DNA of 64,000 nucleotides from NCBI GenBank assembly GCA_963662665.2, contig CAXXJS010000021.1, forward strand, positions 32,001 through 96,000. The letters are read 5' to 3'. The notes under the pieces were generated by a model that ran no database searches, was not told where the DNA came from, and worked only from the letters and a program-made list of their open reading frames with translations. How positions within the stretch are numbered: position 1 is the stretch's first letter; the number at the start of each line of letters is the position of its first letter. The translations under genes and the position numbers were made by a program. This document shows, piece by piece, positions 4,301 through 30,993 of this stretch. This stretch comes from Candidatus Latescibacterota bacterium. Its GTDB lineage: Bacteria; Latescibacterota; UBA2968; GCA-2709665.

Positions 4301-4666
4301 GCTGGTATTCGTGCGCGGTGGATCGAGCTCAGTCCTGACAGCGCTGAGTGGCCATGCGGTATCGGAAATGCACAGCATGTAATCCTGCAGATTCCGTTGC
4401 AGACGGGTGTCGGCGAAGCCGGCGGGGGACCCTATGGCAGCGGCGATGAACCGACGGGCGCGCTGCGTGCCGAAGCGGAACTTGAAGCGAATGGTATCCA
4501 GGATCTGGCTGATCAAATTCCGGAAATTACCAAAGCCGCTGTGGGTAATGATCTTAAATTTAAGGTCCGAATCGATTTCGGAGGAGAAAAGTCTCCCGAT
4601 CCGGAGGCGGTGAAAACCATCAACGATCTGCTCTGTGATGTGTCGGACTCATTCAAGCTTGAATAA
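1346..4666 (+). CDS. DUF499-family AAA+ ATPase (1106 aa)
   Basis: PW..V...R.D, FAADL, FFALTYPT, Walker A YGGGKTH, Walker B LIDE, YPFHP, FQRTRGILR. Confidence 0.88.
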   Translation: MAIKSSSRPWHEVVHLRDDLKTGELPLAIFAADLYDVVMQKGGRPVYERPEDFFALTYPTLNLRELVKDVATRLAGQSDKAYRKLSVNYGGGKTHTLIALRHLAHDPDNLPDLPAVKDFDAHIGFRMPGARVAALCFDKIDLEKGVETLGPGGEIRMLKNPWSILAFQLAGADGLRLIHAEGEDQERDTPPAEPLVVELLSRPQTDGLSTLVLIDEVLMYIRSQVEAQPDSRGRLISFFQYLTQAVVKVDRCAMVASLLASDPRKHDEFGNELLRDVAEVFGRQMEEDASPVSKEDVAEVLRRRFFKPESIRDPGEFRPHVTSIIGSVATLDEQTAKERGAAEERFLASYPFHPDLTEVFYSRWTQLEGFQRTRGILRTFAIGLRDAEKWDTSPLVGPNILLADPKKDGLGEAASDLASFASVDSATGQHQEWRPILEGELSKARAIQIETTGLSHREMEQAVIAVFLSSQPIGHKALTREIMVLVGSADPDKIELEKALRRWTELSWFLDEAEVATGEESTDGQLPGAWRLGNRPNLRQMHHDACSNRVSQSLVEAQLIDAIEKQRSLTSGAAAGGATVHNLPARPRDIGDDGKFHYAVLGPDAVSESGKPSSVARRFIDETTATDRPRVNRNAIVLAVPSRDGLDAVRVRVREHLGWMEVGEQLKGQPIDPIREQMLSSETQASRRRIPEAVTQAYSIVVAVNESNDVHAFKVVVTDEPLFTTIKADRRARIQETPINSEAMMPGGPYDLWREEEPSRRVKDLVGAFSQFAKLPKMLRQKEILDTVVHGVQEGIWVAQVIRPDRTIRTFWRTSIDETAVQDPGLEVFLPEAATLSELVPDLLEHEKLLGLWSSDELAVQEVYDYFSGGHTVVVQREGYEETVMIPKCDTNIVEVAISQAVELGLLWLTNGPASILKEPVPPGVLTNAAVLRPPPEGIDVTKLMPTSIPSAWVEDKANALAISTALSGQCGMTLPWSTVESAIDAGIRARWIELSPDSAEWPCGIGNAQHVILQIPLQTGVGEAGGGPYGSGDEPTGALRAEAELEANGIQDLADQIPEITKAAVGNDLKFKVRIDFGGEKSPDPEAVKTINDLLCDVSDSFKLE

Positions 4667-6655: not shown

Positions 6656-7123
6656 ATGAGGTCAAGAGTCGATGTTGGAGACAACGGCAGCAAGGGGTCT
6701 CTGGTTGTGGAGGTCCCGCGCGGGACCTCCACAACCACGAGGCCGGATCCGGAGGTGCCTGCGCGTGCGAAGCGTCGCCGGTTCACCGCGCGGTATAAGC
6801 TTCGCATCCTGGAAGAGGCGGAGGCTTGCCGGGCTCCTGGTGAAGTTGGCGCGCTGCTGCGTCGCGAAGGGTTGTATTCCTCGCAGTTGACCCAGTGGCG
6901 TCGGGCGCGTCGTGAGGGGTCGCTCAAGGCACTATCCAAATCGCGGGGACCCAAGGGACGTCGCCGCGACGAGGTCGCCGTCGAGAACGAGCAACTGCGC
7001 AAGGAAAACGCCCGTTTGCGTCGACGGCTGGAGCAGGCGAACACGATCCTCGAGATCCAAAAAAAAGCCTCCGAGATCCTGGGCATCCCCCTGAACCGTC
7101 CGCCAAGCGACGACGACGTATGA
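6656..7123 (+). CDS. IS3 transposase OrfA (HTH)
   Basis: RRFTARYKLRIL, LLRREGLYSSQLTQWR, leucine-zipper-like tail; RBS GAGGAG; A8 slippery run at 7059-7066. Confidence 0.88.
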   Translation: MRSRVDVGDNGSKGSLVVEVPRGTSTTTRPDPEVPARAKRRRFTARYKLRILEEAEACRAPGEVGALLRREGLYSSQLTQWRRARREGSLKALSKSRGPKGRRRDEVAVENEQLRKENARLRRRLEQANTILEIQKKASEILGIPLNRPPSDDDV

Positions 7124-8133
7124 TGCGTGCGGCAGAACAACTGGCCCCAAAGGTCGGGTTGGCGGGGGCGTGTCGGGCGTTGGGTGTGGCGCGTGCTTCG
7201 GTCTACCGTGCGCGTAAACCATCGCGATCGGGTCCTCGTAGCGCGCGCCCCTCGTCGCCACGTGCGCTTTCCCAAACCGAGCGCGCTGCCGTGCTGGACA
7301 TCCTGCACGAGGATCGCTTCGCAGACCGGGCCCCAGCGGCAGTCTACGCCACGTTGCTGGAGGAAGGACGGTATGTCTGCTCGATCCGCACGATGTATCG
7401 GGTACTGCACGACGCAGGGGAGGTGCGCCAGCGGCGACACCAGCGGCGTCATCCACGTCTCGAACCACCCCGGTTGATGGCCAGTGCGCCCAACCAGGTC
7501 TGGACGTGGGATATCACCAGGCTGCCAGGACCCCGCAAGTGGGTGACCTTTCCCCTCTACGTCGTACTGGATCTGTTCTCCCGCTATGTCGTGGCCTGGA
7601 TGGTCGCCGCAAGGGAGAGCGCCACAAACGCAAAGCGGCTTATTGCCAACGCGTGCCAGAAGCAGGGCATTCAACCCGGACAGCTGACGCTGCACCAGGA
7701 CCGTGGCGCACCGATGACGGCCAAGACGTTTTCGCAGTTGCTGATGGATCTCGACATCCTGGCCAGCTACTCTCGACCCCGCGTTTCCGATGACAACCCG
7801 TATTCTGAAAGCCAGTTCAAGACGCTCAAATACACCCCATCATACCCCGAGCGCTTCACCGATCCGCAAGAAGCGCGCACCTATTTGCAGGCCTTCTTTC
7901 ACTGGTACAACACAAAACACCGTCACAGCGGCCTGGGATTGCACACCCCCGACACCGTCCACTATGGGCTGACACAGCAGATTCAGGCCGTCAGACAAAC
8001 GGTGCTGGACCAGGCTTATCATAAACACCCTGAACGATTTGTTAAGGGGCATCCTCGTCCGCCAAGCGTTCCGGACGAAGTGTGGATAAACCAACCCGCG
8101 AATACCATCGAATGCCATCAGTTACTTCACTAA
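7120..8133 (+). CDS. IS3 transposase OrfB (DDE integrase core)
   Basis: PNQVWTWDIT, LDLFSRY, HQDRG, DNPYSESQFKTLKY. Confidence 0.92.
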   Translation: MMRAAEQLAPKVGLAGACRALGVARASVYRARKPSRSGPRSARPSSPRALSQTERAAVLDILHEDRFADRAPAAVYATLLEEGRYVCSIRTMYRVLHDAGEVRQRRHQRRHPRLEPPRLMASAPNQVWTWDITRLPGPRKWVTFPLYVVLDLFSRYVVAWMVAARESATNAKRLIANACQKQGIQPGQLTLHQDRGAPMTAKTFSQLLMDLDILASYSRPRVSDDNPYSESQFKTLKYTPSYPERFTDPQEARTYLQAFFHWYNTKHRHSGLGLHTPDTVHYGLTQQIQAVRQTVLDQAYHKHPERFVKGHPRPPSVPDEVWINQPANTIECHQLLH

Positions 8134-12965: not shown

Positions 12966-14708
12966 ATGCTGACCAAACTAACCATCCGCAACTTTAAGCG
13001 CTTCGGTGAAGTGGAGATCGAATTGGGGAGCCCGGTGGTCTTCATCGGACCCAACAACTCGGGCAAAACCTCGGCGATGCAGGCGCTGGCGCTCTGGGAC
13101 ATCGGTCTCAATCGCTGGAACGAAAAACGGTCGGGAAAGACCGCACCCGAAAAACGACCTGGTGTGACGATCAACCGGCGCGACCTTGTTGCCATCCCGA
13201 TTCCGGAGGCAAACCTTCTCTGGCGCGATCTCCACGTGCGTGACGTTCGGTCAGTCGATGGAAAGCAACGTACCAGCAATATTCGTATTGACATCACAGT
13301 GGAGGGAGTTACGGAGGACCGGCACTGGAAATGCGGACTCGAGTACGACTACGCAAACGACGAGTCATTCTACTGCCGACCGCTTCGCCTGTCGGAAAGC
13401 AAGACTCCGGACCACATGCCCCTTCCGCTCGAAGCTGGAAGCACACGAATCGCATTCCTGTCGCCAATGTCGGGCATGGACGCGACAGAGACACGTCTCG
13501 ACGAAGGGGCCGTAAATGTACGGATTGGCGAGGGGCGTACAGCTGACGTCCTGCGCAACCTGTGCTTCCGGGTTTATCAGGATAAGCCGTCACAGTGGGA
13601 TGATCTTGTCAGTCAGATCCAGATGCTGTTTGGATCCCGGCTCGATCCTCCGCGTTACATCACCAAGCGCGGTGAGATCGCGATGACCTACACCGAAGAG
13701 AGTGTCCGTCTTGACCTGTCGTCATCCGGACAAGGTCTGCAACAGACACTGCTCCTTTTGGCGTATATGTACGCGAATCCCGGTTCGGTTGTGCTCCTGG
13801 AGGAGCCGGACGCGCATTTAGAGATTCTCCGCCAACGCCAGATCTGCGGGCTGCTCACCGCCGTCGCGAGAGAAAGTGGCAGTCAGGTCATTGCCGCCAG
13901 CCACTCCGAAGTGCTGCTCAATGAGGTCGCGGGTCGGGAAGTGGTCATCTCGTTCGATGAAGGGCCGCATCCGATTGACGACAACGGAAGCCAGGTTCAG
14001 AAGGCGCTCAATGGAATCAGTTTCGACCAGTACTATCTGGCCCAACAAACCGGCTGGGTACTCTACCTGAAGAGCTCGACGGACCTGGCGATACTGCAGG
14101 CATTCGCAAAGCGACTTAATCATGAACGCGCGATAAAGACGCTTGAACGGCCCTTTGTGCATTACGTAGGAAACCGTCCGCCCGCGGTTCGTCGCCACTT
14201 CGATGGATTGAGGGAGGCCTACCCAGCTATTTGCGGCATTGCGTTATTTGACCGATTGGATTCAGGAATTGGTGACATCTCCCCGGTCGTATGCCTGAGT
14301 TGGGAACGTCACGAGATTGAGAACTATCTATCTTCGCGGTCGACACTCTTGGCGTTCGCCGAAGCGTCGAGCATGGACGACGTGCCTGCACCCCTGTTTG
14401 CGGCGGCTGAAAGACAGAGGCGTGTTAACGCGATGGACGCGGCAATTGACGAAATCGAGTCGGCACTCAAGGCGCTGGGCAAGCCCTCGCCGTGGAGCCC
14501 GGACATTAAGGCGAGCGATGAATTCCTGGATCCGTTATTCGCTTCCTATTTCAAACGACTTGATCTGCCGAATCTGATGGCAAAGAAGAACTTCCATGAA
14601 CTCGTTGACTGCGTCCCCGATAGCGAAATTGATCCCGAAATCCGGATCAAACTCGACGCAATTGCGGATGTCGCGGACAGTGCGGTTCCTGCAGGAGATG
14701 GAACGTGA
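12966..14708 (+). CDS. OLD-like ABC ATPase with degenerate C-terminal TOPRIM-like domain
   Basis: IRNFKRF, GPNNSGKT, SSSGQGLQQ, LLEEPDAHL, ASHS; C-terminal YLKSSTD/FDRLD/EIENY. Confidence 0.75.
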   Translation: MLTKLTIRNFKRFGEVEIELGSPVVFIGPNNSGKTSAMQALALWDIGLNRWNEKRSGKTAPEKRPGVTINRRDLVAIPIPEANLLWRDLHVRDVRSVDGKQRTSNIRIDITVEGVTEDRHWKCGLEYDYANDESFYCRPLRLSESKTPDHMPLPLEAGSTRIAFLSPMSGMDATETRLDEGAVNVRIGEGRTADVLRNLCFRVYQDKPSQWDDLVSQIQMLFGSRLDPPRYITKRGEIAMTYTEESVRLDLSSSGQGLQQTLLLLAYMYANPGSVVLLEEPDAHLEILRQRQICGLLTAVARESGSQVIAASHSEVLLNEVAGREVVISFDEGPHPIDDNGSQVQKALNGISFDQYYLAQQTGWVLYLKSSTDLAILQAFAKRLNHERAIKTLERPFVHYVGNRPPAVRRHFDGLREAYPAICGIALFDRLDSGIGDISPVVCLSWERHEIENYLSSRSTLLAFAEASSMDDVPAPLFAAAERQRRVNAMDAAIDEIESALKALGKPSPWSPDIKASDEFLDPLFASYFKRLDLPNLMAKKNFHELVDCVPDSEIDPEIRIKLDAIADVADSAVPAGDGT

Positions 14709-14960
14709 ATTGAAGGCTCACAATATTGCCGCTGTTGTCTACGCTCCATCCGCTTGTTGTCAGAGAGTTAAAATGACTACATGGAATACATAGGTTCGAG
14801 GAATCGAATTGTCTTTCTGCAGCAACATTTCCACTCTTGCAATTGCTCCACTTGCGAACATTGGGAGAGCCAAGCGCGGCGTCTAGGAGACTTCGATTGG
14901 AGAGTACGCCGTTGATACGGACCCAAGTCGCTTTACCGCTGTTACCTGTGGTTTAGCAAA

Positions 14961-17900
14961 ATGTCGGATTCAAAACTTCCGTCGATTTGTGAGAATCTTG
15001 ATTACTCCAGGCAGAGTTATTCTGTGGCTGTTCTCCTCGCTACGTCCCATCGGACATATCTGCTGAAGAGCCGAGCTCTTCCATCGATCCAGCACCAGTC
15101 CCTTCCCCCAGAGCGGGTGATCATCGTCGATGACTCGGGCGATGAGGCCGCCGCCGAACGAACCGAACTGCTAGTCCGGCAATGGCAACCTGCCGGAGTG
15201 GATGTCAACTTTCTACGCAATCGGCGTACGAATGGGGCCGCAGGGGCGTGGAACTCAGGTTTAGATCACCTGCTGCGGACATGCGGTGACCCAGAACAAC
15301 AGTACGTCGCAATCTTGGACGACGATGATCAGTGGAATCCCCACCATTTACGCACATGTCTGGCAGCCGCCGAGGCACGAAGCCTTGACATGGTCGCGGC
15401 TCCGTTTCTTCGGGTGGAAGAGCAAGCCAAGGCCCTTTTGACGTCTCCGCCGAAATCACTTGATGTGTCTGACTTCCTGGTCGGTAATCCCGGTATCCAA
15501 GGCAGCAATCTCGTTTGTCGGTTGAGTGTGCTGCTTGAAGCAGGTCTGTTCGACGAATCGCTGCCGAGTTGTACGGACCGCGACCTGTGCATCAGAATCG
15601 CGGAGTTGCCCGGCGTTCGGTACGGTACCACTAGTGAACCGACTGTTCATCACTTTGCGTGCGAGTCGAGGCCGCGATTATCAACACGAGGGTCGCAGAA
15701 TAAAGTCAAGGGGCTGGATCGATTCTTCCGCAAGTACAAGGGGCGTATGTCTAACGCCGAGAGATTAGGGTTTTGCGGCCGCGCAGAACATCTGTTCGGA
15801 TGGAAGGAATCGCCGCCAGCACCCACAGCTGAAGATTGTTTCCACGGCGGCCAACTGTCATCAATTTCTCGAACACTGGCACCGCGTCAGGCGCCGCCCC
15901 ACTTGATCGTGGGGCTGATCGCCGACATTGCGAGGCTCAAAGAGTTAGGCAATCTGCTCGCCGATCTTCGCGGGTTGGCAGACGCACCTGACTTGTCGGG
16001 CTACGACGTCCTAATCTTGGAGAACGGTGACGATAGCACGCCCAGCGGTGAACTGCGAACACTCATCGAGCACGAGCGCCGCGGCGGTCTGCGTATCCAT
16101 CTTGTTGACCGTTCGCGGCATTTGCAAGATGCGACGAGCGGACTGGTTCTGGACGGCGGCGTGAGTAAGGAGTCTAGGTTGTCAATTGCCCATGCGCGGA
16201 CGGTATTACAGACGTACCTGTACGCCTTCTCCAAGAGACGGCCAGGTGCCGTGGTATGGATCGTCGATGACGATATGCGGCTCGACCCGCTGGTTGTTGA
16301 AAAAAATGGAAGCCTACAGCGGCGAGTCAATAAGATCGCTCCGATGCTCCAAGAGCTTCGCCGACTCCGTGCCGGTGGGATCGTCGATATTGCCATCGGG
16401 GCGTACACTGGAGCTGCGCCGTTGCCGTCTTTCGCAACTGTACGTGTCCAGCTCGTCGATTTGATCGCGTCGCTGTGGTGGCTGGCGTCCCAGAAACCTA
16501 CGGACTCCCTTCCAGACCGCGGGATAGAGAACGCCAAGTGGCGGTCCGGCCGACGCGACTACTATTACGATCTGTCGCGTAATGAGACCGATCGATTGGA
16601 AGCCCCGTTCTGGATCACGCCCGCGTTTCTTGGTGAGGATGTTGGTTCGGCGTTCGTCCGCGTAGCTGGCATTGCGGAGCGGATCCTTGCCGGCGAGCAG
16701 ATCTTCCGTCCACTCGCATTGGAGGCCAGTCTCAACCCTCTCAATTCGATCGGTGATGGGCTACAGCGCGGCGGCAATACTTTGGTGTTCGATGTCGAAT
16801 CTCTGAAACTGGCCCCCAATCCATCACCGATAATCGACGGGCGGTCGAGCCGCCGTGCTGACATGATTTGGACGTTGCTGCAGAAACGCTACTTCAGCCG
16901 TCAGGTCGTCACCTTGCCGCTCGGCCTATTTCACGACAGATCACATGTCGTCGCCGAATTGGATGTCGACGACATCGTCGACGACATACGTGGCTATGCG
17001 TTGTTCTCAGCGCTTGAGGACATTCCTGGGGTATTCAAGATCACCACGGATGACCGGGGCATTCGTTTGTCCGAGGAAATGGTTGAGTGTTTCGCTCAGC
17101 GCGTCCACAAATACTTAGAAGAGCGGCTGGCCGCAATTCGCCTTTCTTTCTACCGGATCCGCGGTTTGACCCGCGTCTTAAGGCGGCAAATGTACGACCC
17201 AGAAAAATGGTGGCAGGGAGATGAATATCGAGTTGCCGCAAAACTGCTTCGGACGTTTTCCGAACGCTTGGCCGATTTCTACAAAATGGAGACTCTGAAT
17301 CGCATTAGACGCGAAGCCGAGGAACTGGATGCCCCCCGTATCGGCAAGTTTCTTGATCATCTGCCGATCGAAATTGAGAGCCATAGAAGGCGGCTTTCGG
17401 ACTTCTCGGCTCTGATAAACAGTCTTGAGGGCGAAAGGATCGCCAACGCCAAGACCATTGCCATGCGACTGGCTGTTCCCACCCGTGCGCTTAAGGTATT
17501 AGGATGCGGCATTGAGGGAGTAGCTCTCACCGACGGCACAAGGGTATTCAAAGTCTTCGATTACTGGTGGAAGCGTTCTCACAACCTCTCAGCCCCTGCG
17601 TTCCTGCGCTCGCTTGTCGGTGCTTGGAAGGACGCGAGCTGTCTCTATCCGCTTCTTGATTTCCTCGAGTCGGGACATCAGAAGGTGCTGACGTATACTT
17701 ATGAAGTCAGCGAACCGTACAAGGGCGGTCACGGGCCCGCCATGGTCAATCTGGTCGCCGAATGTCGCCAGCATGGTATCGTCTGTCGAAACATCGATCC
17801 AGATAACTTGCGTTTAGCCAATGGACGGATTCGGCTGATCGACTACGGTTCGGACATCCACCCTTTCGATGAAGATGAGTTCCATACGATGTGCCAACGC

Positions 17901-20258
17901 GCCTGGCTATCATATCGCTGGGCTAACCGTTCGAACTTAAAAAACATCATGCGCGAGGCGCTGACGGACGAGCGAATACCTGAACTCGATGGTTTTGATC
18001 GGTTCTACGAGGCAATTCGAATGGTTACAGGTCAGCATGAAACGCGGAAGGATGTTGTGCTGAACTTTGTTGGGAAGGCCGAGCGCGTTCTCGACTACGG
18101 TTGTGGCAAGGGACGGCTTGCCCGAGAAATTTCGGACCGGGGAGTGGATGTATTTGCCTACGATCCTGAAGTAACATACAGGTCGCGCTGGGAGTCACTC
18201 AGTCGGGAAAGCGAAAGCTTACGATTTACGGACGATCTAAATGACGCGTTGGCGGCGGGGCCATTTGATCTTGTTGTTTGCCGTCGTGTGCTATGCACCA
18301 TTGAAGACAACAGTGAATTTAGAACGATTCTCAGCGATCTGCGAAATCTAGTCAGCGAGAGCGGTCGGGTATTGGTGACTGTTTGTGACCCGAATTTTAC
18401 GTTCGGTGCTTCGACACCTGAGGCTGAGCGCGAACTACCGCCTGATGCCAGTTACGAAAGCGTCTTCACGTGGCTCAAGAGGGTGCGCGAAACGGGCCGG
18501 ATGCGCGTAGAGGTGCATCGACCCGAACGGATACTGCGACGCGAATTTGCTCTGGCAGGTCTGGCGGTGTGTAGCCGTGTGGAGGTGCCTACGGTCGATC
18601 TGGAGCGATTCGAACCAGCGTCGGACCGGTTAGTGTTTGAACTCAGCCCGATGGAGCCACTGCCAGCCGAGGTCACTCTAATAATCAAGGCATGTGCCAT
18701 GGAAGCTGCTACTTTGGATGTTCAGGTTCGCCACCTTGTTTCACAACTGGAGACCTCTAGGGCTTTTGCAGACCGAATTCTGGTAATCGATTCCCGAGAA
18801 GATGAATTCCTTAGGCAACACACGTTTGGGAACTTGGGCGACTTGTACAATGCGGCGCGTCGTTTAGAGGAAGCAGGATGGATCGACCGGATCGTTGACG
18901 GACCGAATGACGGCGATGACACGGCATTGCTACACAAGCGGTGGTTCGGAATTCCCTGTCGTACGGCTCATTCCTGCAGCGGCGCTCAGATCGCCTCGAC
19001 GCTTAACGGGTTCGATGCTTGTGCCACACGGTACGTCCTCCAACTGGATGCCGACGTCATGATCGGCCGGCTGGATCGTAGTCACGATTATCTCGCCGAA
19101 ATGCTTGCAGTCTTGCAGCGCGATCCTGAAGCGGTCACGGCATCTTTCAACATAGCGATGGATCATGATCGGCCCTATACCGAAGCGGGAGACAGAGGGC
19201 CGTGGCGTGTGGAGGTGCGTGCAGGAATGATTGATCTCAAACGTCTTTTCGAAGCGCGGCCACTACCGAACCGGCTCATTGGAGAACGTCTGAAATTTCA
19301 CTGGTACCGGGCCCTTGATCGGCAGATCGCGCAGGGTAGAGGTCGTTCATATCGCGGCGGCGATCGCCGGACCTTCTTCGTGCACCCCCCCAATGTTCGC
19401 AAGCGCAAAATTACGGAGTGGTTCGCAATACTCGACCGCATCGAACATGGTGTGGTCCCGTGCGTTCAATATGGAAAGGTGGATTGGGTCGGCGACAAGG
19501 CAAGCTGGATGGGACCGCCTCGGTTAGAACCGTTCGTTTTTGTGGTATCGGGTCGCAACGTGCAGTCGGGGCGGTTTCGTCGTTGCATCGAGTCAATGGC
19601 TCGGCAGAAAGGAGCACAATGGGGCGCCGTCGTTTTTGACGACGCATCCGACCCGATGTTCTCCGAACACTTTGAGATCGCTTGCAGGCCGCTCGTAGAG
19701 CGTTGCACGGTCATTCGTAACCGCCGTCGCTGTGGATTGCTCCTCAACATGGTGACTGCAATTCGGGAGGTATGTGCCGATCCCGAATCGGTCATCATTA
19801 CGCTGGATTCTGACGATGCCCTGATAGGTGATCGCGTTCTGGAACGACTTGCAGCAGAGTACGATCGGGGAGCCGACGTGACAGTTGGCACAATGCTGCG
19901 GACCGACAAGGACGCCAATTATCCTGTATGTTTCGATCAGCCGCGGCGACACCGCGGAGGAAACGTCTGGCAGCACCTTCGGTCGTTCAAGAAACGGCTT
20001 TTCGATGCGATTCCTGACGATGCACTTCGACTTGATGGAGACTATATCGATCTCGCCAACGACTGGGCGTACATGCTACCGATTGTGGAGATAGCAGACC
20101 TGCCAGTACATATCGCTGAACCACTTTATCTTTACGAACCTTCGGGGATTTGGAAAGGGGCAGATCGAACACTTCGCGAGGAAGTTATCGCACGCATCGT
20201 CGCGAAAGACACGCTGTACCAAGACGAGACGTGCGATACGTACAGCGAAAAAATCTAA
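14961..20258 (+). CDS. Giant multidomain glycosyltransferase (four GT-A-like domains) + kinase-like + SAM methyltransferase, 1765 aa
   Basis: DxD motifs ILDDDD, IVDDDM, QLDADV, TLDSDD; kinase motifs LGCGIEG/FKVF/RNIDPDN/IDYG; MTase motif VLDYGCGKG. Confidence 0.78.
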   Translation: MSDSKLPSICENLDYSRQSYSVAVLLATSHRTYLLKSRALPSIQHQSLPPERVIIVDDSGDEAAAERTELLVRQWQPAGVDVNFLRNRRTNGAAGAWNSGLDHLLRTCGDPEQQYVAILDDDDQWNPHHLRTCLAAAEARSLDMVAAPFLRVEEQAKALLTSPPKSLDVSDFLVGNPGIQGSNLVCRLSVLLEAGLFDESLPSCTDRDLCIRIAELPGVRYGTTSEPTVHHFACESRPRLSTRGSQNKVKGLDRFFRKYKGRMSNAERLGFCGRAEHLFGWKESPPAPTAEDCFHGGQLSSISRTLAPRQAPPHLIVGLIADIARLKELGNLLADLRGLADAPDLSGYDVLILENGDDSTPSGELRTLIEHERRGGLRIHLVDRSRHLQDATSGLVLDGGVSKESRLSIAHARTVLQTYLYAFSKRRPGAVVWIVDDDMRLDPLVVEKNGSLQRRVNKIAPMLQELRRLRAGGIVDIAIGAYTGAAPLPSFATVRVQLVDLIASLWWLASQKPTDSLPDRGIENAKWRSGRRDYYYDLSRNETDRLEAPFWITPAFLGEDVGSAFVRVAGIAERILAGEQIFRPLALEASLNPLNSIGDGLQRGGNTLVFDVESLKLAPNPSPIIDGRSSRRADMIWTLLQKRYFSRQVVTLPLGLFHDRSHVVAELDVDDIVDDIRGYALFSALEDIPGVFKITTDDRGIRLSEEMVECFAQRVHKYLEERLAAIRLSFYRIRGLTRVLRRQMYDPEKWWQGDEYRVAAKLLRTFSERLADFYKMETLNRIRREAEELDAPRIGKFLDHLPIEIESHRRRLSDFSALINSLEGERIANAKTIAMRLAVPTRALKVLGCGIEGVALTDGTRVFKVFDYWWKRSHNLSAPAFLRSLVGAWKDASCLYPLLDFLESGHQKVLTYTYEVSEPYKGGHGPAMVNLVAECRQHGIVCRNIDPDNLRLANGRIRLIDYGSDIHPFDEDEFHTMCQRAWLSYRWANRSNLKNIMREALTDERIPELDGFDRFYEAIRMVTGQHETRKDVVLNFVGKAERVLDYGCGKGRLAREISDRGVDVFAYDPEVTYRSRWESLSRESESLRFTDDLNDALAAGPFDLVVCRRVLCTIEDNSEFRTILSDLRNLVSESGRVLVTVCDPNFTFGASTPEAERELPPDASYESVFTWLKRVRETGRMRVEVHRPERILRREFALAGLAVCSRVEVPTVDLERFEPASDRLVFELSPMEPLPAEVTLIIKACAMEAATLDVQVRHLVSQLETSRAFADRILVIDSREDEFLRQHTFGNLGDLYNAARRLEEAGWIDRIVDGPNDGDDTALLHKRWFGIPCRTAHSCSGAQIASTLNGFDACATRYVLQLDADVMIGRLDRSHDYLAEMLAVLQRDPEAVTASFNIAMDHDRPYTEAGDRGPWRVEVRAGMIDLKRLFEARPLPNRLIGERLKFHWYRALDRQIAQGRGRSYRGGDRRTFFVHPPNVRKRKITEWFAILDRIEHGVVPCVQYGKVDWVGDKASWMGPPRLEPFVFVVSGRNVQSGRFRRCIESMARQKGAQWGAVVFDDASDPMFSEHFEIACRPLVERCTVIRNRRRCGLLLNMVTAIREVCADPESVIITLDSDDALIGDRVLERLAAEYDRGADVTVGTMLRTDKDANYPVCFDQPRRHRGGNVWQHLRSFKKRLFDAIPDDALRLDGDYIDLANDWAYMLPIVEIADLPVHIAEPLYLYEPSGIWKGADRTLREEVIARIVAKDTLYQDETCDTYSEKI

Positions 20259-20989
20259 GCAAGAGTCAGGCGACAAGGGGAATTTTCGTTGTAGCGGTTA
20301 TTTTGGCCGGCGGCCATGCCACGAACCCTTCGCCTGCCATCGCTACTTGCCACACGTTGTTACGGGGAGCACTCTATTGTTGACATCGAAATCATCAGTT
20401 CAAGTAGCAAGAATTTTCCTCTTTTCAACGCAATCGCAAAAACCATAGGTCATATCACAAAGCTGAACTCACAACTCATTTCTGCGTCGTGTGGAATGCA
20501 ACTTTCCTGTGAGGCAGACGCACGAGATTTTTCTTGCTCAAGACGTAATCTCGTGCAAAAACCCCACTTAACGCGGACTCGGGGTCCACGGCCACGACAC
20601 ATGCAAACATTCAGCGATTTTCGGCAATACTAACACCACCACGATCATGGCCTAACAGTCGAAAGCCCTCTCGTCTAGCGATTCCAAGTGGTCGTCCTCG
20701 CACCTTGAGGGGAGACAGACCGGCGGGGAGTCGCTTTCTGACGGTAATGACGACCATCCTATGTCACCACAGTGCAATAGAATTCATAGAGAAGCTTGTT
20801 TGATCGTAAGGGTTCATGAGGAATTGCTGCGTTCACACGAACCTCGTGCACGCTGAAGTTCGCATATACTAGAACTCGGACGCCTAGCGGGAAACACAAT
20901 AGGGACTTGACGGCATACATGGGGCTTGTACGATGGGTTTAGACGTTGGCACGTGCATTGCGCGTGTTTTCGTCGACGGCGGATTAAAA

Positions 20990-21088
20990 TACCTCATGCG
21001 TGGTTGGGTCGTCTGTTGGACATACAGGAACGACTCTCAATCCATCGAGGTCTATTGCGCATGCAGTCGTGAAAACGCCCTGTATTGA
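20990..21088 (+). pseudogene. C-terminal remnant of a RelE/HigB-like toxin
   Basis: Hand translation YLMRGWVVCWTYRNDSQSIEVYCACSRENALY* resembles the recalled family motif WVACW...IEVYYAGSRENAPY; overlaps the antitoxin start. Confidence 0.6.
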
Positions 21089-21425
21089 GATTGTCATCAA
21101 GGGGGACATTCCGGACAGGCTGATGACCGTACTGAATGAGGAATACGGCGAACAGGTTCAGTTGTCCGAAGACAACAGCGACGATCTCGTCGACGTATTT
21201 GAGACAGACTGGTACCGAAGCATCAAATCCGGAATGGCGCCCGGAGACAATCTGAGGACCTACCGGGAGAATCACGGGTTGACGCAGGCGAGGCTGGGTG
21301 AGTTACTCGGCGGTGTTCCTCGCCAGCATGTCTCGAATATGGAAAGGGAAGTCCGTTCAATCAGCCTGAATACCGCGCGAAAGCTGGCGGATATTTTTCA
21401 AGTGTCACTCGAGAAATTCGTTTGA
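21069..21425 (+). CDS. XRE/HigA-like HTH antitoxin
   Basis: PGDNLRTYRENHGLTQARLGELLG...VSNMER..ISLNTARKLA; start uncertain (GTG at 21069). Confidence 0.8.
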   Translation: MKTPCIEIVIKGDIPDRLMTVLNEEYGEQVQLSEDNSDDLVDVFETDWYRSIKSGMAPGDNLRTYRENHGLTQARLGELLGGVPRQHVSNMEREVRSISLNTARKLADIFQVSLEKFV

Positions 21426-21589
21426 AGGCGTGAAATGGCGGACAGAAGGCGGAAGGCACCAAGGTGTTGGTTTTCGCGTCCCGGAATTCTCCAGACATGT
21501 TTGGCATTGAGTCCGTACCCAACGCCACAGCAGATACTTGAAGCCCTTGATTCATCATTAGTTTTTTTCGATTGCAGAAGGGTAGAAAA

Positions 21590-21733
21590 GTGACACAGGT
21601 CACCGGCACTCTCATCGACCTGATGGTACGAGCTGTCGTCGCTGAAATCGATCCGGAGCAGGTGATCCTCTTCGGCTCCCGCGGACGGGGCGACGAGCAC
21701 CAGGATTCGGACGTGGATCTGCTGGCGGGATGA
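21590..21733 (+). pseudogene. Truncated minimal nucleotidyltransferase (MNT)
   Basis: Hand translation ...DPEQVILFGSRGRGDEHQDSDVDLLAG*; GS...DxD motif, stop after 47 codons. Confidence 0.75.
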
Positions 21734-21812
21734 CTTCAGACGAAGGAAAGAGGACGTCCTGCGAAGTCTCGGGAGTGAGACGTTCTGAATTGAAGGAGAC
21801 AGCAGTCGCGCG

Positions 21813-22028
21813 ATGCGGCTGATGCTGCCCGCCCGGGCCCTGGACGATGCCCTGCATATTGCCGTATCCGCGGTACACGGCATCGATTATCTTCTGACCT
21901 GGAACTGTCGGCATCTAGATAATGCCGAAACCAAACCCATCGTGCGCAGCATATGCAGCATACACGAGCATTCCAGTCCCGAAATTTGTACCCCTCAGGA
22001 ACTTATGGGAGTAGCTGAAGATGTCTGA
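21813..22028 (+). pseudogene. C-terminal fragment of a PIN-domain (VapC-like) protein
   Basis: DALHIAVSAVHGIDYLLTWNCRHL...ICTPQEL; N-terminal half missing. Confidence 0.78.
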
Positions 22029-22218
22029 CCAAATCATCGAGGAACTCTGGCAGCTCAAAGACAGCATCGCCCGGGAACACGACTATGATATCGAGTCCCT
22101 TGTTGCACATCTCCAAACCAGACAGCAGGCGGCGGGTCGGCAAGTTGTGGATCTTAGCGCCCTGAGGCGGACCGCCGACGAGGGTGCTCCACGAGCAGCG
22201 GACAAGCCGCGCCAATGA
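22021..22218 (+). CDS. Small protein of the type found downstream of this PIN family (putative antitoxin)
   Basis: MSDQIIEELWQLKDSIAREHDYD; overlaps the PIN stop. Confidence 0.6.
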   Translation: MSDQIIEELWQLKDSIAREHDYDIESLVAHLQTRQQAAGRQVVDLSALRRTADEGAPRAADKPRQ

Positions 22219-22235
22219 GATAGACCGCCTGTTTT

Positions 22236-22584
22236 CGCGGTCCTACACGCCTGCAATCCCATGCCTAAACCCCGGTTCTGCATTGCCATTAAAGAAGGCG
22301 AAGCCTGGCTTCCAGGCGATATTGCTGCGATCAGGGCAGTATATCCAAAACTCAACGACCGCGTGTTAAGTGGTTACCAAAACGATTCGATTTGCGGCAC
22401 CTGGGAGGTTCTGGCCGACGCCGTATACGCCGGCGGTGCACACTCGCTGAAAAACCGTGGCTGGCGGGCAGTGGGGAGGGAAAAATACATATGGGCCGAA
22501 AGAATCGCGCCGTTGATGGACGTGGACAACAACGCGTCGCCCAGCTTCTGCTACTTCCGAGACAAGCTTCGTGAACTTACCTGA
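22236..22584 (+). pseudogene. Second, 5'-truncated copy of the DUF4276 gene (diverged direct repeat of 919-1265)
   Basis: Clear nucleotide similarity; shared peptides DSICGTWE and ER.APLMDVDNNASPSFCYFRDKLRELT. Confidence 0.88.
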
Positions 22585-22663
22585 GTATGTACCGCGAGAA
22601 CCCACCCTGGCGATGGATTATTTTTCGTGCAAAAAAACTCCGATTAGGTCAGATATATAAAAC

Positions 22664-23938
22664 ATGACTCGTCTTCGCTTTGTACATGCCGCTGATTTGC
22701 ATCTCGATAGCCCATTTGTCGGCATAAAGGCCGTCGCTCCCGACAATGTGTCTGGCGCGTTGCGCGATGCGACGTTCAGCGCCTACGAGAACATCGTCAA
22801 CCTGTGCATCGAAGAACGTGTAGACGCGTTGCTGGTCGCTGGGGACGTTTACGACGCTGCCGACCGGAGCCTGCGCGCGCAGCTCAAGTTCGTCGATGGC
22901 CTGAAACGGCTGGACGAGGCCGGCATACGGTCTTTCGTGTGCCACGGCAACCACGATCCGCTCAACGGATGGGAAGCTCAGCTGGAATACCCCAAAGGAT
23001 GTACGCGCTTCGGCGAGGAGGCGCAGGCCGTACCGGTTCTTGAAGACGATCCCGAACGCGCGGTCGTTCACGGAATCAGCTATCCGAAACAGAAGGTCAA
23101 CGAGAACCTCGCACTTCGTCTCGGCGCGGCAGATTCCAGCATGTTCTCGATTGGTCTGGTGCATGCCAATGTAGACAGCGACACGAAACACGTGAACTAC
23201 GCGCCCTGCTCGCTCGACGATCTTGAACGGTCTGGTATAGACTACTGGGCGCTCGGACACGTGCATACCAGGCAGGTACTCAGAGAACGGACCCCTACCG
23301 TCGTCTATCCGGGCAACCCGCAGGGCAGGCATCCGAATGAACCGGGCGCGCGCGGCGTGTATCTCGTCGAGGTGGATGAGGGTAACGACGTCCACCTAAA
23401 CTTCAGGACCGTGGATACGGTACGGTGGGCACAGGCCGACCTGGATGTCTCCCGAACAGACTCGGTACCGGAGTTGATTGAAGGACTCCACCAGCGCATC
23501 CAGGATTCTCTGGCCGAATCGGACGGCCGATCGGTCGTGCTGAGGATCAGTCTGTCAGGGCGGGGCGGTGTACACCGTTCGCTGCAGCAGCCGACGTTCA
23601 TTGAGGAGTTGATGGGCGAGTTAAATCGGGAATGGGCGGAGCGTTCACCGTTCGCGTGGTGTGAGCGCATCGTGGACGAGACGGCTGCGCCGTTCAACCG
23701 CGAGGATCGCATTGCAGGATCGGACTTCCTTGCCGAGGTACTTAAGACCGTGGATCTTGCGAAGGACGAAGGCGAGTTGCAAAACCGTCTTCGCAAAGGG
23801 CTTGCCGACCTTTATGAGCACCGCCGCTATCGCAGTCACCTGTTGGACCACGCTCCCGGTGATGACGACCTTGTCCTGCTGATCGACGAGGCTGAGACAA
23901 TTGTCGTAGACCTGCTTTCAGGGGATGAGGACGCATGA
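22664..23938 (+). CDS. yhaO: Mre11/SbcD-like metallophosphoesterase (YhaO family)
   Basis: ADLHLDSPF, AGDVYD, HGNHD, YWALGHVH, YPGNPQGR. Confidence 0.88.
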   Translation: MTRLRFVHAADLHLDSPFVGIKAVAPDNVSGALRDATFSAYENIVNLCIEERVDALLVAGDVYDAADRSLRAQLKFVDGLKRLDEAGIRSFVCHGNHDPLNGWEAQLEYPKGCTRFGEEAQAVPVLEDDPERAVVHGISYPKQKVNENLALRLGAADSSMFSIGLVHANVDSDTKHVNYAPCSLDDLERSGIDYWALGHVHTRQVLRERTPTVVYPGNPQGRHPNEPGARGVYLVEVDEGNDVHLNFRTVDTVRWAQADLDVSRTDSVPELIEGLHQRIQDSLAESDGRSVVLRISLSGRGGVHRSLQQPTFIEELMGELNREWAERSPFAWCERIVDETAAPFNREDRIAGSDFLAEVLKTVDLAKDEGELQNRLRKGLADLYEHRRYRSHLLDHAPGDDDLVLLIDEAETIVVDLLSGDEDA

Positions 23939-26900
23939 AGATCCGGGACATTCGCATCGACGGGTTCGGCCGGTTTTCGGACGCCCAATTCGGGCCGCTG
24001 GAGCGATCCTTAACCGTTTTCGTCGGCCCGAACGAGGCGGGCAAGAGTACCCTGCTGGAATTCGTCCGCAGGATACTTTTCGGATTTCCCCGCAAGAGCG
24101 GACGGGTAAACCCCTACCCGGCGTTGGGCGGGGGGCGGTACGGAGGTCGCGTTGCTATCGAGGGTTCTGACGGTCGAATGTGCGACTTACACAGAACGAC
24201 GGGGGGAAGTTTCAGGGGTGACGTGGTCCTGACTTCTGCATCCGGACAGCCCCTCCCGGAAAACGAACTTACGGCACTTCTGGGGAATCACTCGAGGGAC
24301 GTCTTCGAACAGGTGTTCGCATTCACGCTCGAAGACCTCTACAGCGACGAACTGTTAAACGACGAAAATGTCAATAGCCAGATATACAGTGCGGGCATGG
24401 GTGTGACCTTGCTCCCTGGCGCCGTCAGGTCGATCGAGTCAGGCCGCACAGACATCTTTCTGAAGGGAGGTAGCAGCCAGAAGGTCTATGAAGTCCGCGG
24501 TAGAATCGAGGAATTGGACGAAACGCTGCGAAGCGTCCGGGACAACGCGGCGAGATATGGGGAACTGACCGACCGCCGCCGGCAGATCGAGGATGAGCTT
24601 AGAAACCTCGCGGTGCGGCGACAAGAGATTCAGTCTCGGTATAACCATCAGGTCATGCTTCAGAATGCCTGGGGGAGCTGGATCGACCTGAATTCCGCCG
24701 AGGAAGATTTGGCTGAACTACCGGCCATTGACGATTTTCCTGCGGATGGATTGAATCGCCTGGAAGCATTACAAGAGCGCTTGAGCGCCGCTCGGAGGGA
24801 GTACGAGTCCGACGAACATCGGGTGTCGAAGGCCGAACGAGCAGCGGACGTCAGGATAGAGCATGAGGCTATTCTGACAAATTCGGCCGAAGTCCGTCGT
24901 CTGCAAAACGGCCGTACCGCGTTCGACGGGTCTGTAAGAGACCTTCCGGAACGCGAGACCGAGCTTGAAGGCCACACAAGAACGCTCGCCGACACCCTGA
25001 AAAACCTGGGGCCGGACTGGGACGAATGCCGGTTGGAAGGGTTCGATTTCTCTATAGCAGTCCGCCAGCAGATCTCTGAACACGGCGACCGATTGCGCAG
25101 CGCATCCGCCGGACTCACGGATGTCAAATCGGCGTTGGGCCAGGATACAGCGGCGTTAGAGGAAGCCAAGGACGCGGAGAGCAACGCCGGACGAAGACTC
25201 GAGGCCGCAGATAAACCACGCCTCAATCCAGACCGGATACGACAACACCGCCACCTTGTTCGGGCAACCAGGTCGCAGCTTGATGAAATCAGCCGACAGC
25301 GACAAAACGTGCTGAATCTCAAGAATCAGCTCAAGGGCGTGGAGGGCGCGGCGCAAGCGGAGGGCGCACGTGCCGGCAGCAGAACCGTCGCAGCCATCAG
25401 CTTCGTTATTGGACTCGCGCTTCTTATCGCAGGTGCGGCTCTGGGAGGCATGGCTTCCATCATCGGCGCGGCGGCCGGAATTGCGTTGGCAGGCTTAGGC
25501 ATTTACCTGTTCATGTCCGAAAATTTCCGACCGGTACTCGCAGGGAAATCCCCTCTTGCCCAACCGATTCGCGAGTCCATTCGCGACGCCGAAAGGGACA
25601 TAGATGATCGCCGGTCAAAGATGAAGCAGGATGCAGCCCCCCTTAACCTTAATGTGATCGATGAATCGTCACTCCTTTCAGCCGAACAGACGATCGACGA
25701 AGAGGAGGAATTGCTGAACGAGCGAACGCGCCTCACCGAAACGCTCGAGGACGCTAAGGAACTTGCAAAGCAGCGACAGATCCGCACTGACAGAACTGCC
25801 ATTGCCGTCACGGAAGCAAAGGGTCGACTCAACGCAGCACGGCTCGAATGGCGGAAGTGGGCAATGTCTCGCGGCCTGTCTGATACCTTTACGCCTGAGA
25901 CGGCCGACGTGCTGCAAGGGCAGGTCGAACTCGGTCGGAGCCGGCTCGAAGACGTGAGGAGTTGGCAGCAGCGCATCGAGGCCATCCAGAAAGACATCGA
26001 CGAATACATCGACGCTGTTGAGCCGCTTGCGGCCGCGTTCGACGTCCCGTTTGATCGAAACGACTCACGCGTCGTAGCTGCTGCCGCCGACAGGCTGGTG
26101 GAGTTATTGGAAGAGGTACAGGAAGACGTCCGGAAGCGGACCGACACGGAGGCTGAACTGGAAGACGCCAGGCGACAATTGAAAGACCGTAAGGGCGATC
26201 TACGAAAGGCAGAGGAGGAGCTTGAACAATTGCTCCATTCGGGCGGCGCCGAGGACGTGGAAACGTTCCGCGTGCGGGCAGATCTTTTCGACCGGCGGGC
26301 GAGACTGGATGACAATGCCCGCGCCGCGCACGACAGGCTTCGCCGCCTCAGCGGGACCGGCGAACTACTGGAATCGTTGAAATCGGACCTTCAAGAGACG
26401 AATCCTGAGTCCATCGCAGACGAGTTAGCCACACTCGAGCATGAGCGGGATTCTACCGACGCTCAACGTGAAATGCGTTCGGCCGAACAGGGCGAAATCC
26501 GTAAGGGGCTGGATGGGCTCGTCGGTGAAGAAGAGTCATCGCGGCTGCGGATGGAACGGAACGTGCTCCTGGAGCAACTCAGGGGCCACGCACGTGATTG
26601 GACCCGGCTTACGATCGCCCGGAACCTGCTCGCCGAAGCGCGCCGAAGGTTTGAGCGCGAGCGGCAGCCCGGCGTTATCCGTCACGCTGAGCGCTTCTTC
26701 GCTGCGATCACCGATGGACGGTACCGGCAGGTTTATGCTCCCCTTGGTGAACAGACGATTACGGTGACGGACGCCGACGGGCAGACGAAGCAGCCGTCGG
26801 AACTGAGCCGGGGTACGCGGGAGCAACTGTTCTTGTCGCTCCGTTTCGGGCTGATCCGCGAACTGGGGGAGCGGACGGAGCCGCTCCCCGTCGTCGTGGA

Positions 26901-27075
26901 CGAAATCCTGGTCAACTTCGATCCCGATCGCGCCCTTCGAGCCGCCGTTGCCTTCACGGAGTTGTCCAAAACCAACCAGGTCCTGGTCTTTACCTGCCAT
27001 CCGACGGTCGTCGAACTGTTCCGGAATGCGGCATCCGAGGCGGACGTCAATGAACCGCAGGTCATTGAAATATAG
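23935..27075 (+). CDS. yhaN: Rad50/SMC-like ATPase with internal transmembrane hairpin (YhaN family)
   Basis: GPNEAGKST, coiled coils, two hydrophobic helices, LSRGTREQL, VVVDEILVNFD, FTCH; ATGA overlap with yhaO. Confidence 0.88.
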   Translation: MKIRDIRIDGFGRFSDAQFGPLERSLTVFVGPNEAGKSTLLEFVRRILFGFPRKSGRVNPYPALGGGRYGGRVAIEGSDGRMCDLHRTTGGSFRGDVVLTSASGQPLPENELTALLGNHSRDVFEQVFAFTLEDLYSDELLNDENVNSQIYSAGMGVTLLPGAVRSIESGRTDIFLKGGSSQKVYEVRGRIEELDETLRSVRDNAARYGELTDRRRQIEDELRNLAVRRQEIQSRYNHQVMLQNAWGSWIDLNSAEEDLAELPAIDDFPADGLNRLEALQERLSAARREYESDEHRVSKAERAADVRIEHEAILTNSAEVRRLQNGRTAFDGSVRDLPERETELEGHTRTLADTLKNLGPDWDECRLEGFDFSIAVRQQISEHGDRLRSASAGLTDVKSALGQDTAALEEAKDAESNAGRRLEAADKPRLNPDRIRQHRHLVRATRSQLDEISRQRQNVLNLKNQLKGVEGAAQAEGARAGSRTVAAISFVIGLALLIAGAALGGMASIIGAAAGIALAGLGIYLFMSENFRPVLAGKSPLAQPIRESIRDAERDIDDRRSKMKQDAAPLNLNVIDESSLLSAEQTIDEEEELLNERTRLTETLEDAKELAKQRQIRTDRTAIAVTEAKGRLNAARLEWRKWAMSRGLSDTFTPETADVLQGQVELGRSRLEDVRSWQQRIEAIQKDIDEYIDAVEPLAAAFDVPFDRNDSRVVAAAADRLVELLEEVQEDVRKRTDTEAELEDARRQLKDRKGDLRKAEEELEQLLHSGGAEDVETFRVRADLFDRRARLDDNARAAHDRLRRLSGTGELLESLKSDLQETNPESIADELATLEHERDSTDAQREMRSAEQGEIRKGLDGLVGEEESSRLRMERNVLLEQLRGHARDWTRLTIARNLLAEARRRFERERQPGVIRHAERFFAAITDGRYRQVYAPLGEQTITVTDADGQTKQPSELSRGTREQLFLSLRFGLIRELGERTEPLPVVVDEILVNFDPDRALRAAVAFTELSKTNQVLVFTCHPTVVELFRNAASEADVNEPQVIEI

Positions 27076-30818: not shown

Positions 30819-30874
30819 CAGAGGTTCCCTTCAGGCGTTCGTCTATCGTACAATTGGTTCCGGCATGCAGGACA

Positions 30875-30977: not shown

Positions 30978-30993
30978 ATATACGTCGGAAATC

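Follow-up and report, generated by a model that had tools for sequence, protein, structure and literature searches.

We analyzed a 64,000-nucleotide stretch of the genome of a Candidatus Latescibacterota bacterium (GenBank assembly GCA_963662665.2, contig CAXXJS010000021.1, positions 32,001 to 96,000 of the forward strand; henceforth the window, numbered from its first letter), centering on a gene for a 1765-aa protein that combines four glycosyltransferase-type domains with a kinase-like domain and a methyltransferase (MTase). Our tentatively favored reading is that this is a soluble, cytoplasmic multienzyme protein that converts a nucleoside- or nucleobase-like molecule into a methylated glycoside and is carried on mobile elements, possibly for defense. 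We favor a nucleoside- or nucleobase-glycoside assembly line because the genes that recur beside its relatives are centered on nucleobases and because the first two glycosyltransferase-type domains (D1 and D2) and the MTase offer structural leads in the same direction.

The gene is a single uninterrupted open reading frame (ORF) with an ATG start, and its coordinates and length agree exactly with those in a first-pass annotation of the window, which was made from the letters alone. The four acidic motifs quoted there were all found in the translation (ILDDDD, residues 118 to 123; IVDDDM, 433 to 438; QLDADV, 1361 to 1366; and TLDSDD, 1614 to 1619). In an alignment of 75 homologs, used for both conservation analysis and structure prediction, Asp is invariant at D120-123, D436/D438, D1363/D1365, and D1619, and the DxD and S-adenosylmethionine (SAM) motifs are all invariant. 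The folds reported here are those of two multidomain models predicted from this alignment, one of residues 1 to 760 (mean predicted local distance difference test score [pLDDT], 92.9; predicted template modeling score [pTM], 0.93) and the other of residues 700 to 1765 (mean pLDDT, 92.6; pTM, 0.84), within which D2, D5, and the kinase-like domain were compared. Profiles and models together bear out the proposed domain order, namely, a GT2 glycosyltransferase (D1), a GT-A-like domain (D2), the kinase-like domain, a class I MTase, a second GT-A-like domain (D5), and a second GT2 glycosyltransferase (D6). Also in line with the earlier description, no membrane span is predicted, since the highest 19-residue Kyte-Doolittle mean is 1.39. 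The gene occurs as a single copy in its 4.86-Mb genome, and its ratio of nonsynonymous to synonymous substitution rates (0.09 to 0.24 against four homologs) indicates that it is under purifying selection.

These data support four predicted GT-A-type domains, of which D1 and D6 are bona fide GT2 and D2 may be an NDP-sugar mutase rather than a transferase. The GT2 profile PF00535 matches D1 and D6 (90.2 bits against a Pfam cut-off of 23.3), which align to each other in hhalign with a probability of 96.7% and have a GT-A fold in which the metal/nucleotide motif DxD is conserved. For D2 and D5, structure comparison bears out a Rossmann-like GT-A core, and their sequences showed no membership in any described glycosyltransferase family: there was no Pfam match at E ≤ 5 in five D2 and two isolated D5 sequences, none under D5 in four longer class II proteins (see below for the classes), and no PDB sequence match for either domain with profiles A4, A6, A9, and A10. 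An hhalign comparison of D2 with D1 gave an E value of 5.8e-4 with a probability of only 29%, and nothing significant was obtained for D5 against D6, D1, or D2.

The best solved structural match of D1 is AvpGT, a nucleoside glucosyltransferase, in a tie with other GT2 enzymes. AvpGT is a nucleoside-specific GT2 enzyme, and enzymes of its type are described as glycosylating the nucleoside 3'-OH (PMC11959488). AvpGT, NucGT, and ScaGT are single-domain enzymes of ~300 aa from Streptomyces natural-product clusters, whereas the family studied here is multidomain and the comparison is one of folds. D2 is structurally nearest to MtdL, a GT75 NDP-pyranose mutase reported to supply NDP-furanose donors (PMC9937993); this likeness is one of fold, there being no Pfam or PDB match at the sequence level. 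Within D2, R413, R583, R632, R660, and D436/D438 are invariant in the 75 homologs, as read from the alignment and not from a residue-level superposition on MtdL. The MTase is, besides GT2, the only domain that Pfam recovers (48.4 bits against a cut-off of 27); it carries motif I (D/ExGxGxG) and an acidic motif II, and is structurally nearest to the small-molecule methyltransferases ToxA, XrdM, and GSMT, the first of which is named in its PDB entries as the N-methyltransferase of the toxoflavin pathway.

The kinase-like domain noticed in the first pass was recovered as a eukaryotic-type kinase domain by profile searches of PDB, with matches to MRCK, ROCK, TTK, and DMPK at E values from 5e-6 to 1e-2 (MRCK alpha is best at 5e-6; MRCK, TTK, and ROCK fall within 5e-6 to 1e-4). 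The stretch vcRNlhPdN...lIDYGs of the family aligns to vHRDikPdN...laDFGs of kinases. The Gly-rich loop (G848/G850/E852/G853), K864, N949, and D961 (of DYG) are invariant or nearly so and align to MRCK, but the catalytic Asp of the HRD motif is replaced by N944, which is invariant in the 75 homologs. As the nucleotide-binding residues are kept while the catalytic Asp is an Asn, the domain probably binds a nucleotide and is not an ordinary phosphotransferase. HER3 is a pseudokinase in which HRD is changed to HRN; such pseudokinases share with our domain the Asp-to-Asn change together with retention of the Gly-rich loop, the VAIK Lys, the catalytic-loop Asn, and the DFG Asp, and differ in that the domain here is embedded in a glycosyltransferase protein and has class II relatives that keep D-x-K-P-x-N. 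In a motif table of 47 members, the full-length and D1-kinase-D2 types carry the Asn, whereas eight class II relatives keep the Asp: the full-length and class III members have the catalytic loop N-x-[HD]-P-x-N, and the split class II relatives (e.g., L034, L039, L041, L042, L044, L055, and L056, in our numbering of homologous loci) have the canonical loop and no MTase. From these motifs, loss of the catalytic Asp and Lys seems to go with the change in architecture. The helical linker that precedes the domain consists of five helices at positions 6 to 45, 55 to 74, 77 to 88, 92 to 114, and 117 to 138 of the second model (assigned by DSSP); its pLDDT is mostly 83 to 94, dropping to 74 and 65 within positions 101 to 120 of the model.

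To place the protein among its relatives, hidden Markov models built from the domains of the family were used to sort the homologous loci into five architectural classes. (i) Class I, the full type, has the order D1-D2-helices-kinase-MTase-D5-D6. (ii) Class Ia is a shorter form that ends after the MTase. (iii) Class II has a separate D1 followed by kinase-D5-D6; after D6, its C terminus can bear a histidine-phosphatase domain (L034:10609-13836) or a radical SAM domain (L039:2029-5235; L042:12241-15507). Among named families, this radical SAM domain comes closest to MoaA, viperin, and QueE, in each case with a score well short of the cut-off. (iv) Class III has the order D1-kinase-D2. (v) Class IV consists of D1-D2 alone.

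Several genes recur as partners of the family, adjacent to and co-oriented with the glycosyltransferase gene in relatives; hence the earlier description of the protein as standing alone holds in the window and not for the family. A LOG-like protein of SLOG cluster4 (SLOG4) is encoded in 12 scanned loci, following the gene in L011, L014, L015, L017, L018, L028, L029, L037, L038, L106, and L108 and fused to the C terminus of a full-length member in L109; it keeps the GGGxGTxSE motif, and the L028 copy passes the TIGR00725 cut-off. A fusion of GTP cyclohydrolase II (GCHII) to a NADAR N-glycosidase, with both halves above their NCBIfam cut-offs, follows class III and IV genes in L035, L036, L046, L047, and L050. 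In a Pseudoalteromonas donghaensis plasmid, where this fusion is annotated as ribA, the annotation shows an operon of the glycosyltransferase, ribA, an asparagine synthase-related gene, and an arylamine N-acetyltransferase, lying between tra genes. QueC, above its cut-off, follows class II genes in L042 and L044, and radical SAM domains are fused in L039 and L042 and adjacent in L034, L040, L043, L049, and L054; in Salinivibrio kushneri, a radical SAM gene adjoins the family gene between insertion sequence (IS) elements. NDP-sugar epimerases/dehydratases were found in eight loci; arylamine N-acetyltransferase, AsnB, and M20 proteins are also among the partners, and Macro, PIG-L deacetylase, UDP-glucose dehydrogenase, sulfotransferase, and PhyH are single cases. 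Many of the homolog contigs are short, and the absence of a partner from such loci means little.

Judged by their sequence affinities, these partners share one theme, the freeing or building of a nucleobase from a nucleotide. SLOG proteins of the LOG clade are described as breaking an N-glycosidic bond, which sets the base free (PMC9503650). GCHII followed by COG3236/NADAR hydrolysis would yield free aminopyrimidines, which are then glucosylated, in the route proposed for the plant glucoside vicine (10.1101/2020.02.26.966523). QueC is described as giving rise to the free base preQ0, which in huimycin/dapiramicin is methylated and glycosylated, with deoxysugar enzymes taking part (10.64898/2026.04.15.718813). 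The arylamine N-acetyltransferase would fit an aromatic-amine substrate. Thus, the huimycin/dapiramicin and vicine pathways resemble what flanks the class II and III relatives in bringing together a GTP-derived free base, an MTase, one or more glycosyltransferases, and deoxysugar enzymes; as far as their descriptions go, they differ in using glycosyltransferases of other families (PF13439 in the huimycin family) and in having no kinase-like domain. The words "glycosyltransferase" and "cyclohydrolase" are both absent from the available text of PMC9503650.

From the partners and the structural leads we infer the class of acceptor, the order of the steps, and the biological role as follows. The acceptor would be a small, soluble molecule resembling a nucleoside or nucleobase, on which the modules would act one after another. 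D1, as a GT2 enzyme of the nucleoside-glycosyltransferase kind, would attach a sugar; D2 would supply an unusual NDP-sugar donor (e.g., a furanose) or add a second sugar; the MTase would methylate the aglycone or the sugar; and the tandem GT-A pair D5-D6 would extend the glycan. The kinase-like domain would serve as a nucleotide-binding or scaffolding module, probably without phosphotransfer, and a nucleobase or nucleoside would emerge as its methylated (oligo)glycoside. As an accessory, mobile cassette, the gene often lands in defense islands, prophage-like elements, and plasmids. This proposal is close to one of two alternatives offered in the first-pass annotation, a cytoplasmic enzyme acting on nucleotide-type substrates, which now gains support from the nucleotide-centered partners, the AvpGT-like D1, and the small-molecule-like MTase.

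A role in conflict, such as "chemical" defense by nucleoside analogs or detoxification of such compounds, is plausible from these genomic associations. More specifically, the family might form the core of a mobile "chemical" immunity, an idea to which we give rather little credence: a freed nucleobase, unusual sugars, and a methyl group would be joined into analogs that poison phage replication, or such analogs would be disarmed. The base would be freed by the LOG-like SLOG4, the GCHII-NADAR N-glycosidase, or QueC with radical SAM enzymes; the sugars would include furanoses from the MtdL-like D2; and the version in the window would fuse all of the sugar chemistry in 1765 aa and be paired with an AAA_15/21 ATPase. 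A bolder variant would have the AvpGT-like D1 cap the 3'-OH ends of nucleic acids.

Several observations weigh against the favored glycoside assembly line. Searches with the L014 protein did not find SLOG4 in the 92%-complete genome to which the window belongs, and no base-supplying partner was found in the window or in that genome, which also sets the gene apart from the huimycin- and vicine-type pathways. The partner evidence comes in part from relatives that are 24 to 47% identical and of differing architecture (classes II to IV), whose acceptors may differ from that of the window's protein. The structural neighbors are tied within 1 Z: for D1, AvpGT ties with the fucosyltransferase WrtF, whose solved structures contain tri- and tetrasaccharide ligands, and for the MTase, ToxA ties with GSMT; moreover, a shared fold does not give the substrate. 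Finally, for each half of the protein, Foldseek ranks a two-domain polysaccharide polymerase first (K4CP, 1.3e-16; PmHS2, 1.8e-12), a result that would fit a polymer equally well.

These last matches lead to the other alternative of the first-pass annotation, a one-protein glycan polymerase with a built-in terminator. In this scenario, which strikes us as doubtful but not negligible, the protein would make a lipid-linked surface polysaccharide of the ABC-transporter-dependent pathway, with two pairs resembling the chondroitin and heparosan polymerases K4CP and PmHS2 carrying out polymerization, the MTase capping the nonreducing end, the helical linker acting as a ruler, and the export and priming genes lying elsewhere. 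Each half aligns across two consecutive GT-A domains, as in K4CP (which the D5-D6 tandem resembles) and PmHS2, but identity is 13 to 16% and the root mean square deviation across the pair is 15 to 21 Å; therefore, the domains match and their arrangement does not. K4CP and PmHS2, in addition, act in capsule loci with export genes, and none were seen beside the family here. A comparable set of modules is found in ORF6 of the Klebsiella pneumoniae O7 antigen, a single polypeptide described as having two GT2 modules along with a SAM methyltransferase, a domain of kinase fold, and a long helical (coiled-coil) region (PMC11231755), and WbdD of Escherichia coli O9a is described as combining an MTase with a coiled coil and a kinase of eukaryotic type, which was likened to the DMPK/ROCK family (PMC3482155); the kinase-like domain here likewise matches MRCK, ROCK, and DMPK best. 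Our protein differs from WbdD and ORF6 in its order (GT-GT-helices-kinase-MTase-GT-GT) and in its catalytic Asn, which is present in every class I member, whereas the equivalent change, D441A, is reported to abolish the kinase activity of ORF6(O7) (PMC11231755). It thus lacks the signature of an active sugar-phosphorylating kinase expected of a terminator of the WbdD/ORF6 type, although a methyl-only (O8-like) terminator would still fit. WbdD was not among the best 60 profile matches or the VIA top 50; the latter held no match of the kinase-like domain, which has no bearing on its fold.

The gene surroundings also bear on this alternative. NDP-sugar epimerases, UDP-glucose dehydrogenase, deacetylases, and AsnB-like amidotransferases, all found among the partners, are usual in polysaccharide loci as well. 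However, Pfam outputs for the ~340 neighbor proteins in the window and 50-odd homologous loci, a sample limited to gene surroundings with many short contigs, contained no Wzm/Wzt, Wzx/Wzy, flippase, polyprenol-phosphate priming transferase, or ligase. The claim that wzm/wzt and flippase genes are missing next to the gene thus extends to the neighbors of its homologs, and no polysaccharide locus with Wzm/Wzt and priming/adaptor glycosyltransferases, nor any other O-antigen gene, was seen near family members. The GCHII-NADAR fusion, QueC, LOG-like SLOG4, Macro, and arylamine N-acetyltransferase have no role in glycan assembly, and the cassettes are one to four genes long and lie on plasmids, prophage-like elements, and defense islands. 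In sum, the polymerase-like halves and the ORF6-like set of modules speak for the earlier proposal, and the lack of export and priming genes in these surroundings and the kinase Asn speak against it.

A less likely alternative, to which we would assign a low probability, is a defense effector whose target for glycosylation and methylation would be a macromolecule, either the invader's or the cell's own (DNA, RNA ends, or protein), with the kinase-like domain as a sensing or target-binding module, the upstream AAA_15/21 ATPase as a sensor, and SLOG, NADAR, and Macro proteins as erasers or regulators. The gene does lie in a defense island: Pfam and PADLOC corroborate the defense-gene neighbors reported in the first pass (HEC-01A/B, an HmaC-like ATPase, a STAND NTPase, and the AAA_15/21 ATPase). 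PADLOC was run on the three ORFs flanking the gene to either side in 21 homologous loci (123 proteins, with L013 excluded because it nearly duplicates L012), and matches at E ≤ 1e-10 were found in 8 loci (L001; L002, Dsr1; L004, MkoA; L005, type I MTase and BrxB; L006, Avs4 and HEC-01; L007; L014; and L020), a figure that has no random-gene control and is hence suggestive; the matches in L015 and L019, to generic ABC and ThiF proteins, were left uncounted. Defense-type Pfam domains occur within four ORFs on either side in L008, L009, L016, and L017 as well. Orthologs of the ATPase lie directly upstream of the gene in L006 (83% identity) and L014 (65%, with the 1765-aa protein's counterpart there 66% identical), making the ATPase a possible candidate partner, and on one IMG/VR contig an AccI-type restriction-modification (R-M) pair adjoins a full-length member, together with an integrase and an antirepressor. 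Conflict systems are described as using SLOG, NADAR, and Macro domains to process ADP-ribose derivatives (PMC9503650), and the glycosylation of the nucleoside 3'-OH by AvpGT-type enzymes (PMC11959488) also counts in favor of this alternative.

Against such an effector, 13 of the 21 loci have no PADLOC neighbor within three ORFs, several lie among metabolic genes (L003, L010, L011, L021, and L022, the remaining surroundings being likewise metabolic), and defense islands also gather unrelated mobile cargo. The ATPase ortholog is not directly upstream in the other loci examined. No nucleic acid-binding domain was found, and the 1765-aa protein fits no system model of PADLOC-DB v2 beyond generic matches (mad2 over the MTase, 7.7e-8; PD-T4-6 over 46 residues of the kinase loop, 5.9e-5). 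Arylamine N-acetyltransferase, AsnB, sulfotransferase, PhyH, and M20 partners point instead to the tailoring of a small molecule. What speaks for defense in general is the neighborhood in those eight loci and carriage by mobile elements, which make such a role plausible. Least likely, and in our view quite improbable, is a housekeeping or stress-related role, unrelated to conflict, with the protein producing either a glycosylated cofactor or a cytoplasmic oligo- or polysaccharide that carries methyl groups. This would be akin to mycofactocin, for which MftF is described as oligoglycosylating a small cofactor and MftM as methylating it. In its favor, the protein is soluble with four GT-A domains and an MTase, and the best NCBIfam match of D1 is MftF (E = 2.9e-10, far below the cut-off); against it, the gene is accessory and patchily distributed, similarity across phyla is 60 to 67%, members are carried on mobile elements, partners are nucleotide centered, and no mycofactocin genes were seen nearby.

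The distribution of the family bears out this accessory character. A word-indexed search recovered 417 proteins at E ≤ 1e-3; among the 120 matches listed, 112 are 1665 to 2089 aa long and 50 to 94% identical across nearly the full length. An exhaustive search with residues 814 to 1380 recovered 819 representatives of clusters at 50% identity at E ≤ 1e-3, of which 237 reached E ≤ 1e-30, most matching at the same position in proteins of ~1700 to 2000 aa. The named records are metagenome-assembled genomes labeled Latescibacterota, Gemmatimonadota, Poribacteria, and Alpha- and Gammaproteobacteria (58 to 89% identity), a set of phyla that we take to be typical of marine sponge microbiomes; a homolog from Roseovarius sp. 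A-2 is 41% identical. Of the other species compared, 2 of 13 congeneric ones have the gene, as do none of 7 confamilial ones and 2 of 19 from the same order. In a quick tree, gammaproteobacterial copies nest among alphaproteobacterial ones, with the Pseudomonadota on one side of a branch and the Latescibacterota and Gemmatimonadota copies 0.3 to 0.4 substitutions per site away. The patchy distribution, the cross-phylum matches, and the tree together indicate an accessory, horizontally moving gene, the tree by itself being no proof of repeated transfer between phyla. IS elements, tra genes, integrases, and a tRNA are among the neighbors of family members, and four IMG/VR contigs carry full-length members.

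In a limited search of the literature on anti-phage glycosyltransferases and SLOG/NADAR conflict systems, we found no description of this six-domain architecture. If the favored glycoside assembly line is correct, a large uncharacterized family (at least 237 clusters at 50% identity) produces glycosides of nucleobases or nucleosides and is exchanged by several phyla on plasmids, prophage-like elements, and defense islands; it would add a route to nucleoside-analog natural products outside actinomycetes, a compact all-in-one glycosylation catalyst for biocatalysis, and a candidate small-molecule-based anti-phage mechanism. Were the protein instead a polymerase, it would be the most highly fused polymerase-terminator yet seen, moving between phyla without export genes. 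Under either reading, the question can be tested directly, given the link between glycosyltransferase modules and SLOG, NADAR, Macro, QueC, and GCHII genes.

Table 1. Domains of the 1765-aa protein and other features of the window
Feature	Position	Strand	Basis
Whole gene, 1765 aa, six domains plus helical linker	14961..20258	+	ORF list and translation
D1, GT2 glycosyltransferase, residues 20-282, DDDD motif at 120-123	15018..15806	+	
D2, GT-A-like domain, residues 311-720, DDD motif at 436-438	15891..17120	+	
Helical linker, residues 705-838, five long helices	17073..17474	+	DSSP of predicted model
Eukaryotic-type kinase-like domain, residues 841-1015	17481..18005	+	Profile search of PDB
Class I SAM methyltransferase, residues 1020-1231	18018..18653	+	Pfam match at 1039-1160
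D5, GT-A-like domain, residues 1234-1510, DxD motif at 1363-1365	18660..19490	+	
D6, GT2 glycosyltransferase, residues 1511-1758, DSDD motif at 1616-1619	19491..20234	+	
HEC-01A/B, intact pair running off the window start	1-1300		PADLOC
HmaC-like/DUF499 ATPase	1346-4666		PADLOC, 3.4e-70
Transposase	7120-8133		
STAND NTPase, 1505 aa	8395-12912		PADLOC PDC-M54A, 3.9e-20
AAA_15/AAA_21 ABC-type ATPase, 580 aa, upstream of the gene	12966..14708	+	Pfam and PADLOC
HEC-01B-like fragment, 107 aa	22261-22584		
Mre11/SbcD-like phosphoesterase (424 aa) and AAA_27/SbcC-like ATPase (1046 aa), 4-base overlap	22664-27075		
Two ABC exporter genes, OprB-type porin, DUF4249 protein, TonB-dependent receptor-like protein	27097-36268	-	

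Scans for regulatory and RNA features gave little: promoter and terminator sites around the gene were no more numerous than in shuffles, no tRNA was found in the window, and there was no Rfam match at E ≤ 1 in positions 14000 to 22700, hence no riboswitch clue. The HmaC-like ATPase has no obvious helicase or methylase partner in the window. In the syntenic locus L006, the corresponding position is taken by a 1703-aa STAND protein that matches Avs4 at 4.6e-158 and that BLAST did not cluster with the one in the window. The Mre11/SbcD- and SbcC-like pair is conserved in L006; its NCBIfam scores are far below the cut-offs, for which reason it may be a defense-type nuclease pair and not the housekeeping SbcCD. 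The two ABC exporters (27097-30818) were considered as serving the 1765-aa protein and rejected, being encoded on the opposite strand at a distance of 7 kb, past the SbcCD-like pair; they are not conserved near homologs, and their BLAST cluster joins only generic ABC ATPases. Judging from the exporter, porin, DUF4249, and TonB-dependent receptor-like genes, ordinary chromosomal genes resume at about 27 kb.

Among the relatives, a prophage-like IMG/VR contig (L109:1-20725; GC content, 44%) has an integrase, a Bro/ANT antirepressor, and the AccI-type R-M pair before the family member and a UDP-glucose dehydrogenase-like gene, a ParB-DNA methylase, and a SAM synthetase after it. In L014, a tRNA gene (L014:7813-7885), a typical site of island insertion, lies directly upstream of a cassette of the ATPase, the homolog of the 1765-aa protein, SLOG4, and an epimerase. 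L001 is labeled Latescibacterota and L006 Gemmatimonadota, yet a genome search puts both in the genus of the window's bacterium, and one of the two labels is probably wrong. In L006, the HEC-01 pair (16777-18574) lies between the family gene and the SbcCD-like genes; set against this order, the position of the HEC-01 pair in the window and the HEC-01B-like fragment make the window's island look rearranged, with a remnant of HEC-01B apparently left behind.

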